DNA of 64,000 bases from an uncultured Bacillota bacterium (GTDB taxonomy: Bacteria > Bacillota_I > Bacilli_A > RF39 > UBA660): positions 9,722 through 73,721 of the forward strand of contig CAOJZV010000003.1 in NCBI GenBank assembly GCA_948466255.1, given 5' to 3'. The notes beneath the pieces were generated by a model. The model did not search any database and had not been told where the DNA came from. It worked only from the letters and a program-made list of their open reading frames with translations. Numbering within the stretch: position 1 is the first letter of the stretch; each line of letters opens with the position of its first letter. Below are positions 7,102 through 63,668 of this stretch, one piece after another. A program made the translations under genes and the position numbers.

Positions 7102-7143
7102 TTTATTTCCTCCTTTTTTGTATTGTTAAAAGCCCCTTCTATT

Positions 7144-7183
7144 TGTAATATACGATATTTTATAGGCAAATTCCTTGTTAAAA
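7144..7183 (-). repeat. Dispersed ~40-bp element, copy 1
   Basis: tgtaatatacgatattttataggcaaattccttgttaaaa; 36/40 identical to 18001-18040. Confidence 0.9.
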
Positions 7184-7212
7184 TTAAAAAAACTTTAGAT
7201 TTTTCTAAAGTT

Positions 7213-17962: not shown

Positions 17963-17990
17963 TTTTCATCTCCTTTATTTACTAAAATTT

Positions 17991-18040
17991 GCACCTCTAA
18001 TGTAATATACGAGATTTATAAGGCAAATTCCTTGTTAAAA
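17991..18040 (-). repeat. Dispersed ~40-bp element, copy 2
   Basis: gcacctctaatgtaatatacgagatttataaggcaaattccttgttaaaa, directly upstream of the DUF1016 gene. Confidence 0.9.
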
Positions 18041-18096
18041 ATGAAAAAAGTTGTAAAAAAATGAAATTTCTTTTAAAAAAAGAAAATAGCTTTTTA

Positions 18097-40622: not shown

Positions 40623-40651
40623 ATTTTTCTTCCTTTCTTTTTGTTTTTTTG

Positions 40652-40723
40652 CACCTCGTATATATCCTACGAGATTTATATAGTGATTTCCTTTTTATTT
40701 TTGAAATTTTTGTATATTTTTTT
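40652..40723 (-). repeat. Dispersed element copy 3; left copy of a 72-bp exact direct repeat
   Basis: cacctcgtatatatcctacgagatttatatagtgatttcc...gtatattttttt, identical to 41321-41392. Confidence 0.95.
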
Positions 40724-41315: not shown

Positions 41316-41320
41316 TTTAT

Positions 41321-41392
41321 CACCTCGTATATATCCTACGAGATTTATATAGTGATTTCCTTTTTATTTTTGAAATTTTTGTATATTTTTTT
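41321..41392 (-). repeat. Dispersed element copy 4; right copy of the 72-bp direct repeat
   Basis: Identical to 40652-40723; its GAGGTG arm serves as the RBS of the PBECR-like gene. Confidence 0.95.
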
Positions 41393-61093: not shown

Positions 61094-61756
61094 TTAATTA
61101 TTATTTAAAGTCAACCTGCTTCTAAGTTTAGTTAGAACCTTTTTTTCTCTTCTAGACACATCTACTTGACTGAGTCCTAAAGTATTTGCAATTTCAGTTT
61201 GGGTCATATCTTCATAATATCTACTTATCATAATAGATCTTTCTGGTTCTTCTAAATTTTCAAGTTCAGTTTTTAAAAATAGTAAATCATTTATATCTGC
61301 ATGAGGACTACTAAGTATTTCATGAAGCATCATGTTGGTATCACCCACATTACTATCGATACTTTTTAAACTTAATCTAGAGTTTAAAGCTTCAACGATA
61401 TAATACTCTGGGATTTCTAAATAATCGCTTAATTCTTTTAGTGTTGGTTCATGCATAAGTGTTTGTGATAATAAAGATTTAGCTTTTTCTATTTTATTGT
61501 GAAGTTTATTAATATCTCTACTAATTTTTATACTTTTGTCTTCTCTTACAACTTTCTTCATTTCTCCTAAGATATAAGAATAAGCATATGATGTGAATTT
61601 AACGCCTTTAGTATGATCAAATTTATTATAAGCTTCAATCATACCTTTACAGCCAGCTTGATATAAATCATCTTTATCTTGATAATAAGGAAAATAGCTA
61701 GAAAGTTTGTAAATTAATTTTTCATTTTCCATGATTACTTGTGCTATATCTTGCAT
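61094..61756 (-). CDS. sigF: Sporulation sigma factor, SigF/SigG family
   Basis: DDLYQAG..G...A..KFD...GVKFTSYA...ILGE, KISR, R..EDMTQTEIA..LGLSQVDVSR; follows a spoIIAA-like gene. Confidence 0.75.
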   Translation of the reverse strand: MQDIAQVIMENEKLIYKLSSYFPYYQDKDDLYQAGCKGMIEAYNKFDHTKGVKFTSYAYSYILGEMKKVVREDKSIKISRDINKLHNKIEKAKSLLSQTLMHEPTLKELSDYLEIPEYYIVEALNSRLSLKSIDSNVGDTNMMLHEILSSPHADINDLLFLKTELENLEEPERSIMISRYYEDMTQTEIANTLGLSQVDVSRREKKVLTKLRSRLTLNNN

Positions 61757-62118: not shown

Positions 62119-63300
62119 TCATACTGTAGCACACTCTTTTTTCTTTTTATATAGTTTCGACAAAACTAGAATTAATATGACCAGTAATAATATCATTGGT
62201 AAAAAGGCATATAATAACCCTGATGTTTTAACTTCTTTTAAGTCGTCAATTTTTTGAATATTTAATGGATATGAAATTGCTTTAGAAGGTATTTTATAAA
62301 CATTATCAGTTTTATCTGAAACAATATTCATTTTTTTTGAGTTATCAGATTCATCTAGTTTATCATAATGTTCTTCGTTTATATTATTTACTACTTCAGG
62401 AAGAATTGTTCTTGTTCTTTTGGAATAATAATCTTTATATAATGTTTCATCTTTATATATAAAATCTTCAAAAGGCATCGTTGTATATTCATCATAATAG
62501 ATTTTGTTTAATTTATAATTACGATATAAAATGTCTTTATATTTATATAAAGTAACTTCTTCTATTTGTTTAAAAGCGTTTCCAGTTGGAAATTTTTCTT
62601 CAGAATAAAAATCTTCATATATATTATTAGGACATGAAATATCCATACCTTTCCATAGTGTATTCCTATTTTCTAAAAAAGAATGCATCATTTCATTATA
62701 AACTTCATCATCATTTCCACAATAGATATAAATTGTGCATACAGAACTACTTGTCTTATTAAATCCACTATAGGATAAAGTTAAATATCTAAGTTCTAAA
62801 TCTTCTTTAAAATTAAATTTAATATACCCATTTGGCTCAAATTCAAAATTATCATTTACATTTTCCATTTCCATATCGTATTCTATTTCTTCTCCCTTGT
62901 ATAAAATTTTAATATCAGATAAAGCTATATCGGACATTAACACTTTAATCTTTAAAAAGTTTATATCTTTAACTTTGTGATAGTGATAACCATTTATAGT
63001 TTCTATAATTCTTCCTTCTTTTTCTGATGGTTTTTCTATACTAACATCTGAATAATCTGTATAGATATAATCATCTTTATCTATAAATGGATATTCTACT
63101 GAATCGTTCTCACCATAACCTCCTAGTTCTTTTTCTAACTTATAATACTTATACCTTCTTTCTATTTTAACATCTGTTAAATCATTACTTTGAATATAAT
63201 TTTCGGTATATTCACTAAAGTCGGTATAATCCGAATATTCTAAAGCACTCGCATTTCCTACTGCGAAAAATAGTAAAAATAAAACTAAAATTTTTTTCAT
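62119..63300 (-). CDS. Secreted protein with C-terminal membrane anchor
   Basis: Signal peptide MKKILVLFLLFFAVGNASA; C-terminal hydrophobic helix followed by KKKK. Confidence 0.8.
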   Translation of the reverse strand: MKKILVLFLLFFAVGNASALEYSDYTDFSEYTENYIQSNDLTDVKIERRYKYYKLEKELGGYGENDSVEYPFIDKDDYIYTDYSDVSIEKPSEKEGRIIETINGYHYHKVKDINFLKIKVLMSDIALSDIKILYKGEEIEYDMEMENVNDNFEFEPNGYIKFNFKEDLELRYLTLSYSGFNKTSSSVCTIYIYCGNDDEVYNEMMHSFLENRNTLWKGMDISCPNNIYEDFYSEEKFPTGNAFKQIEEVTLYKYKDILYRNYKLNKIYYDEYTTMPFEDFIYKDETLYKDYYSKRTRTILPEVVNNINEEHYDKLDESDNSKKMNIVSDKTDNVYKIPSKAISYPLNIQKIDDLKEVKTSGLLYAFLPMILLLVILILVLSKLYKKKKECATV

Positions 63301-63314
63301 ATTTTTCTCCTTTC

Positions 63315-63407
63315 TTGCATAATATATTTAAATATGATAAAATAAATTTAGTGAGGTGGCCACTAGGCCCAACCTCCGGTGGGTACCTAGCTTAAGCTAG
63401 GTTTTTT
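63315..63407 (+). ncRNA. Promoter and ~57-nt sRNA, candidate type I antitoxin
   Basis: TTGCAT-17-TAAAAT with extended TG (63315-63343). The predicted transcript from about 63351 carries AACCTCC (anti-SD) and ends in a CCTAGC/GCTAGG hairpin plus T6. Confidence 0.6.
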
Positions 63408-63408
63408 A

Positions 63409-63474
63409 TTAGTGCTTTCGGGGAGATTCTCTTAGTAAAACTAAAAGTACAACAAGAATAACTAAATATTCCAT
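63409..63474 (-). CDS. Small hydrophobic peptide, candidate type I toxin (MEYLVILVVLLVLLRESPRKH)
   Basis: 21 aa, hydrophobic core with basic tail, AAGGAG RBS; overlapped by an out-of-frame 34-aa ORF (63392-63496) whose strong RBS is sequestered. Confidence 0.55.
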   Translation of the reverse strand: MEYLVILVVLLVLLRESPRKH

Positions 63475-63540
63475 ATTCTCCTTCTAAAGTTTTCATAAAT
63501 AACACCTCCTTTCATTTGGAGGTTAAACCTAGCTTTTCCG

Positions 63541-63587
63541 CCTCGTATATAATATACGAGATTTATATAGCAAATTCCTTGTTAAAA
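63541..63587 (-). repeat. Dispersed ~40-bp element, copy 5
   Basis: cctcgtatataatatacgagatttatatagcaaattccttgttaaaa; 63548-63587 is 37/40 identical to copy 2. Confidence 0.9.
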
Positions 63588-63668
63588 ATAAAAAAAAGTC
63601 CGTTTTTACGAACTTTCTTTTTTTGTATGTTTTTTTATGCGAATTTCCGATTTTTGTAATAAAAGTTT

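Follow-up and report, generated by a model that had tools for sequence, protein, structure and literature searches.

A candidate type I toxin-antitoxin family with a mok-like upstream ORF and a fold-back antitoxin target in uncultured gut Bacilli

[quoted passage not shown] An antisense RNA located on the 3′ side is the layout of the Gram-positive family (PMC8594479). In mok/hok, described along with RNAI/RNAII, an upstream ORF overlaps the toxin ORF and the mRNA is closed by its 5′ and 3′ ends (PMC4147584). Here we analysed a locus located in a 64,000-nt stretch of DNA (the window) from the metagenome-assembled genome (MAG) of a reduced-genome, uncultured member of the gut Bacilli (1.05 Mb, 27.8% GC, 68%-complete). 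From comparative sequence analysis we consider it likely that this locus represents a new type I toxin-antitoxin family, with a mok-like upstream ORF and a fold-back element of the mRNA that would be the target of the antitoxin. Since zero Rfam, Pfam and NCBIfam models were matched at threshold, the locus is not a member of any described family. At a permissive E-value, Rfam gave sub-threshold matches exclusively (the best being istR with 21.8 bits for a cut-off of 45 and BsrG with 15.5 for a cut-off of 55), and a full-text literature search returned zero papers describing a type I system in Mollicutes.

The module covers about 250 nt, with the toxin ORF on the minus strand and a convergent sRNA gene on the plus strand. 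Its features and their surroundings are as follows:

Up to 63669, minus strand: upstream surface-protein gene (end of gene).
63590–63621, no strand assigned: terminator-like hairpin after the surface-protein gene, 14-pair stem and T-run, with A-/T-runs on both sides.
63551–63580, minus strand: toxin promoter, AAGGAAT (63580–63574), TATAAAT (63567–63561) and CGTATATT (63558–63551); predicted start of the toxin mRNA at about 63556–63545.
About 63545–63518, minus strand: 5′ leader of the toxin mRNA, GAGGCGGAAAAGCUAGGUUUAACCUCC, predicted to pair with 63353–63377 and resembling the 5′ half of the sRNA.
63504–63523, minus strand: SD1 hairpin, ACCUCC (63523–63518) with GGAGGU (63509–63504), sequestering the strong SD1.
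63392–63496, minus strand: ORF1, 34 aa, ATG 8 nt 3′ of SD1, in a frame other than that of the toxin ORF and ending inside the hairpin.
63478–63483, minus strand: SD2, AAGGAG, 3 nt ahead of the toxin ATG, weaker than SD1.
63409–63474, minus strand: candidate toxin ORF, 21 aa, MEYLVILVVLLVLLRESPRKH, ATG at 63474, stop at 63411–63409.
63353–63377, minus strand: 3′ UTR segment (second hairpin), GGAGGUUGGGCCUAGUGGCCACCUC, putative fold-back partner of the leader and exact complement of the sRNA 5′ hairpin.
63385–63407, plus strand: intrinsic terminator of the sRNA, ACCTAGC/GCTAGGT (63385–63402) followed by TTTTTT; helix 3, with 98.5% of cells paired.
63350–63407, plus strand: candidate antitoxin sRNA, about 58 nt, with a 5′ hairpin GAGGUGGCC-ACUA-GGCCCAACCUC, a G/U-rich linker and the terminator.
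63315–63343, plus strand: sRNA promoter, −35 TTGCAT (63315–63320), 17-nt spacer and TG-extended −10 TAAAAT (63338–63343).

The preliminary description of this locus had reported the SD hairpin, the 21-aa ORF with its overlapping 34-aa ORF and a near-duplication GGAGAATAT/GGAATAT, and all were found where it had placed them. The homologous loci which it proposed to look for do exist. Searches by BLAST, by nhmmer and with an sRNA covariance model detected the module in 18 of the 65 genomes of the genus (38 sRNA matches), with the 21-aa peptide conserved, and did not detect it in 126 other genera of the order. A scan of all species genomes with the exact hairpin motif yielded mostly chance terminators (Acinetobacter, Colwellia and others), the module itself being present only in MAGs of this genus. 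More than 20 diverged homologous loci were obtained in this way and every element is conserved among them. The host genome carries a second copy on contig C15, with 84% identity.

In other species, the neighbours of the module are unrelated genes (rpoC, topA, mutS, ABC transporters and a PBP), and the modules are often convergent with neighbour genes or organized in tandem arrays, some of which consist of two full copies and one orphan sRNA gene. Three orphan sRNA genes (L023 942–1024 in G034, L026 527–610 in G024 and L029 23–106 in G006) have the promoter and the terminator without a toxin ORF; they lie directly 3′ of the terminator of an unrelated gene and adjoin tandem full modules. Decay was observed as well. 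In two G014 copies (L054 and L056) TTA replaces the toxin start codon. L054 is moreover devoid of the sRNA 5′ hairpin and promoter, and no other locus has so weak a 5′-3′ duplex (−13 kcal/mol, rank 21 of 21). Given these unrelated neighbours, tandem arrays, orphan sRNA genes and decayed copies, the distribution and the behaviour of the copies fit an autonomous, duplicating module and not the leader of one operon.

Comparison of the two copies of the host genome (window and L002, on contig C15 of G000) reveals a mosaic. Both flanks, corresponding to window positions 63290–63345 and 63515–63655, are virtually identical. The left flank of the duplicated block comprises the upstream terminator and the toxin promoter, while the right one extends from the sRNA promoter to the initial codons (ATGAAAAAA) of the secreted-protein gene that follows, which is otherwise unrelated. 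Between these flanks, the toxin ORF and the 3′ UTR have diverged. Such an arrangement of identical flanks and diverged centre points to gene conversion, or to promoters that are under strong selection. The hairpin at 63590–63621, identical in the C15 copy, forms the left edge of the block; by a simple scan, four terminator-like hairpins were seen in 1.1 kb vs 0.3 expected.

The 21-aa ORF was examined in 21 unique loci, where the peptide follows the consensus MEYL[VIT]ILV[VI][LI]L[VFY][LI]L[KR][DE]xPxKK. Pairwise pN/pS in these loci was 0.33 for the toxin frame, compared with 1.34 for that of ORF1 and 0.50 for the remaining one. Variation in the toxin frame affects 16 of 16 third-codon positions vs 8 of 16 second positions, and translation would begin with ATG at 13 loci, with GTG at four and with TTG at two, so that only valid starts interchange. 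On account of these three properties, the 21-aa hydrophobic, membrane-type peptide is, as judged by its substitution pattern, a selected coding product. A small (<60 aa), hydrophobic and truly coding ORF, as required of a type I toxin, is therefore found at this position. It is generally preceded by an SD of its own, since GGAGG-like motifs occur 3–6 nt ahead of the toxin start in most members. Neither the toxin peptide nor that of ORF1 had a Pfam or NCBIfam match above cut-off. Ibs_toxin (PF13956) appeared below threshold (11.1–12.2 bits for a cut-off of 27, E 0.2–0.4), a match which probably reflects composition. Hok/Gef (PF01848) gave zero Pfam matches with these peptides, and no Fst-type toxin sequence was found either.

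Upstream of the toxin start, an anti-SD preceding SD1 is present in the members inspected by eye, and a start codon lies 7–9 nt 3′ of SD1 in nearly all members (one G030 copy lacks a well-spaced upstream start). Wherever an upstream start can be identified, a single locus excepted, the distance between the two starts is 7, 10, 13, 16 or 22 nt, always 1 modulo 3, although this rule rests on about five related indel states and provides modest evidence for a functional relation between the frames. At the exceptional locus (L182 1431–1769, in G078), ORF1 is reduced to MEV-stop and its TAA abuts the toxin GTG (TAAGTG), a layout that suggests termination-reinitiation coupling. ORF1 was also considered as a real protein and rejected: its pN/pS is above one, as given above, and NTN codons of the toxin frame cannot make stops in the ORF1 frame, which keeps ORF1 open automatically over the hydrophobic stretch. 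ORF1 would instead be a mok-like or decoy frame whose amino-acid sequence is not under selection.

The origin of this two-start arrangement can be proposed from the G034 and G024 copies, where the two starts form an exact tandem ATGGAAT ATGGAAT. Because of this tandem, a 7-nt duplication probably created the upstream start, and we regard it as an old, conserved trait of the family and not as a lesion of the copy studied here. The preliminary description had taken the near-duplication as a sign that the toxin may be frameshifted. This view is abandoned, as the two-start arrangement occurs in nearly all members and the toxin frame has its own start, its SD2 and a low pN/pS.

Of 22 unique loci, 21 have on the opposite strand a promoter of the type TTGnnn-17-TAnnnT, with TG in most cases and at the same distance from the hairpin; a pattern search gave 18 of these promoters, and three with a TATAAA −10 were recognised by eye. 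In the window, its −35 matches TTGACA at 3/6 positions and its −10 matches at 5/6 plus TG; the promoter is fair and was unlisted by a simple scan. The plus-strand promoter announced in the preliminary description is thus present and conserved, but ‘near-perfect’ overstates these matches. The sRNA gene ends at the toxin stop codon without overlapping the toxin ORF. Per-locus folds gave for each member an sRNA composed of a 5′ hairpin, a G/U-rich linker of 9–13 nt and the terminator, and the covariance model R1 scores 65.8 bits at the window sRNA, whose GC content is 53% vs 28% for the genome. Under the modelled structure, paired cells make up 89.4%, and both partners have changed in 8 of 14 pairs; 0 of 500 shuffles reached these values. 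This count leans towards the modelled structure because the alignment was fitted to the model. The covariation score is 0.220, vs at most 0.118 with slid partners.

The CCTAGC/GCTAGG hairpin had been described as a terminator shared by the two convergent transcripts. The hairpin is indeed there, but in all 16 aligned members a U-tract follows it on the plus strand only; on the mRNA strand, the hairpin comes after an A-run and is followed by, for example, UACCCACC or AAACCAAA. Since the U-tract is confined to the plus strand, this hairpin would terminate the sRNA only. Asymmetry between the strands of the sRNA hairpin, counted as G-U vs A-C pairs, was not significant. Promoter and terminator on the strand opposite to the toxin are conserved whatever the neighbours, which predicts a convergent RNA of about 58 nt. 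In the window, the sRNA promoter (63315–63343) lies inside the 5′ UTR and ribosome binding region (63298–63312) of a 393-aa gene on the opposite strand; because of this position, transcription of the sRNA and expression of that gene could interfere, in the four copies having this junction.

The toxin promoter is of another kind. About 20 copies of its module occur in the genome ahead of diverse genes, five of them in the window (63551–63596, 7131–7192, 17988–18049, 40648–40709 and 41317–41378), and it precedes dnaG, Bro-N-like, ORF6N-like and C39-peptidase genes as well as both toxin copies. AAGGAAT and CGTA are invariant, with the spacing AGGA-N18-GTAT, and the strict pattern AAGGAWWT...GTAT was matched upstream of 16 of 22 family members. 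This layout resembles that of Bacillus sigma-H promoters (AGGAwww-N11-12-RnnGAAT), with GTAT replacing GAAT. The toxin would be placed on a special multi-copy promoter, in contrast to the candidate antitoxin, which has an ordinary promoter of the sigma-70 type.

The mRNA leader pairs with the 3′ region through two helices. The first is the 11-nt complementarity between 63535–63525 and 63404–63394 already pointed out in the preliminary description, which is present and conserved: its length is 5–11 bp in the family and 7–11 in all but one member, and compensatory changes are seen in the loops (AA/UU here, AU/AU in G017, GG/CC in G014). RNAalifold recovers this 5′-3′ pairing. The second, stronger helix had been missed at first reading. 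In minimum-free-energy folds, 63533–63518 pairs with 63377–63362 over 16 bp, to which GG/CC and GAGG/CCUC pairs are added. Across the family, the duplex of leader and 3′ UTR spans 18–29 bp, with energies from −20 to −46 kcal/mol. The mean is −33.8 kcal/mol for cognate pairs vs −25.8 for non-cognate ones, and the cognate partner usually ranks first or second of 21. Moreover, each of the 19 loci compared has a more stable duplex in the mRNA sense than in the reverse one (means of −36.0 vs −28.1 kcal/mol; Wilcoxon p = 1.3e-4, the loci not being independent). Several Watson-Crick types of pair were found at single helix positions (for example A-U, C-G, U-G and U-A at one). As judged by these comparisons and folds, the 5′ leader and the 3′ region form a covarying long-range helix of 22–29 bp.

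Two consequences can be drawn. As the leader pairs with the region complementary to the sRNA, the mRNA must span this whole region, and it probably reads through the terminator hairpin. Furthermore, since the leader mimics the 5′ half of the sRNA, leader and sRNA would be rivals for a single 3′ UTR site.

We propose the following mechanism. An RNA of about 200 nt would be transcribed on the minus strand from the multi-copy promoter, through the hairpin and over the whole sRNA complement. This mRNA would be nearly untranslatable, owing to superimposed layers: its 5′ leader is folded back onto the 3′ UTR, the strong SD1 is held by the local anti-SD hairpin, and SD1 feeds the start of the out-of-frame ORF1, leaving the toxin start dependent on the weaker, closely spaced SD2. 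The sRNA would pair with the 3′ UTR (58 nt of perfect complementarity) and displace the near-identical leader. RNase III, whose gene is present in the genome, would then cut the long sRNA-mRNA duplex, and the mRNA would decay as with RatA and SR4. In the window’s clade, the released anti-SD would in addition close SD1 and stop translation of ORF1 and toxin, a behaviour that would recall SR4 on bsrG joined to the logic of mok/hok. Blocking the 3′ UTR in silico raises the energy needed to open SD1 from 4.4 to 9.1 kcal/mol at this locus and in its clade. Among the 20 loci modelled, this switch is predicted only there; in the G034, G024 and G017 clades SD1 is closed in both states or slightly opening. 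We keep the SD1-closing step as a hypothesis because the effect is absent from these other clades.

Direct pairing of the sRNA with the SD was also evaluated and rejected as main mechanism. The anti-SD ascribed to the sRNA in the preliminary description is present in the window, but absent in the G034/G024 clade (AAAUCUUUAG), and its pairing is not clearly above that of shuffled sRNAs: energies are 0–5 standard deviations below the shuffled ones, mostly 1–3. We also envisage, tentatively and with more doubt than confidence, that the sRNA acts by mimicry, as a copy of the mRNA leader. Without sRNA, the fold-back would free SD1, so that ORF1 and, through ORF1, the toxin are translated; with sRNA, the anti-SD would lock the SD and the duplex would be cut. 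ORF1 would then be the gate of toxin synthesis.

Could the peptide be something other than a toxin? With the same architecture, it may be a harmless small membrane protein, for instance one modulating a membrane complex, with its level adjusted by an antisense RNA in cis. The analysis covered sequence features, purifying selection is expected of any functional small protein, and the module which forms the toxin promoter also drives ordinary genes such as dnaG. Multiple copies, tandem arrays, orphan sRNA genes, a patchy presence in 18 of 65 genomes and unrelated contexts are however typical of toxin-antitoxin systems and unusual for housekeeping small proteins, and the stacked repression of translation makes sense mainly for a dangerous product. 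We thus judge this explanation unlikely, while giving it some weight.

Downstream of the locus, an operon encodes the 393-aa membrane protein, a STAS protein and a sigma factor of the SigB/F/G type. The first gene matched zero NCBIfam models; the sigma factor (61094–61756, minus strand) scores as a member of the SigB/F/G family but stays below all curated cut-offs (SigF 175 bits vs 321). The minus-strand RNA might be read as a cis-regulatory leader or attenuator of this operon, with the small ORFs as leader peptides. Its hairpin without U-tract would permit read-through to the next gene, and in four copies (two in this genome and two in G030) the conserved block reaches the first codons of the downstream secreted-protein gene. 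Neighbours nevertheless differ between species, the modules often being convergent with them or in tandem arrays, and the plus-strand promoter and terminator are maintained regardless; a leader function is rejected on this ground and appears very improbable. That the locus is a dead copy, in which the 7-nt duplication split an ancestral 26-aa ORF, is hardly credible: the near-duplication is real and probably made the upstream start, as in the G034 and G024 tandems, but nearly every member in the 18 genomes has two starts, the toxin frame keeps a start codon and an SD2 of its own and evolves under purifying selection, most members have no single fused ORF, and the truly decayed copies look different (TTA for the start codon, one of them without sRNA hairpin).

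Taken together, the type I-like nature of the locus put forward in the preliminary description gains comparative support from selection on the peptide, the sRNA gene, covariation and the patchy multicopy distribution, whereas the frameshift and the shared terminator which accompanied it have been dropped. A candidate type I toxin-antitoxin module of this compactness, with more than 20 diverged and covarying copies, makes questions of mechanism testable: how translation at the 5′ end can be controlled by an antisense RNA binding the 3′ end, whether toxin synthesis in a system of Gram-positive type is favoured or impeded by an out-of-frame ORF placed upstream, and why the toxin has a special promoter when the antitoxin has an ordinary one of the sigma-70 type. 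Small orthogonal RNA switches are being reused as regulatory devices (PMC12721322).

Compared with described systems, the candidate toxin resembles the Ibs peptides of the Ibs/Sib systems of Escherichia coli, which are likewise very short (about 19–21 aa) and composed almost purely of Leu, Val and Ile. Sib however spans the whole ORF, whereas the sRNA described here lies off the ORF, and the phylum is another one. With par (Fst, RNA I/RNA II of pAD1) and SprA1/SprA1as, the locus shares an overlap limited to the 3′ UTR and a hairpin (PMC8594479, PMC4147584). Unlike in par, this hairpin would terminate the sRNA only, the two RNAs begin with similar, not complementary, sequences, without DRa/DRb-type pairing at the ribosome binding site, and the peptide has no Fst motif and zero Pfam matches.

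Similarities with hok/mok/Sok of plasmid R1 are found in the mRNA. The upstream ORF has the good SD and shares part of its length, in a different frame, with the toxin ORF, and the 5′ and 3′ ends would pair into a closed, inert fold as does the tac-fbi pairing of hok, which we regard as an analogy of design and not as homology. As in hok/Sok, the duplex is an expected substrate of RNase III (PMC4147584). In contrast to Sok, which binds the 5′ region around the mok start, the sRNA has its gene 3′ of the toxin ORF and would bind the 3′ fold-back element; the organism, unlike the hok host, is of the low-GC Firmicute type.

Finally, as in bsrG/SR4 and txpA/RatA of Bacillus subtilis, a convergent antisense RNA would pair with the 3′ part of the toxin mRNA and decay by RNase III is expected, and like SR4 the sRNA of the window’s clade is predicted by modelling to tighten the SD-hiding helix remotely. 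The locus has no sequence relation to these systems and differs from them in its build. The sRNA is only about 58 nt long and stops at the toxin stop without overlapping the ORF. The candidate toxin has 21 aa vs 38–59 and is accompanied by an upstream out-of-frame ORF. In addition, the target of the sRNA is here the partner of the mRNA’s own 5′ leader.
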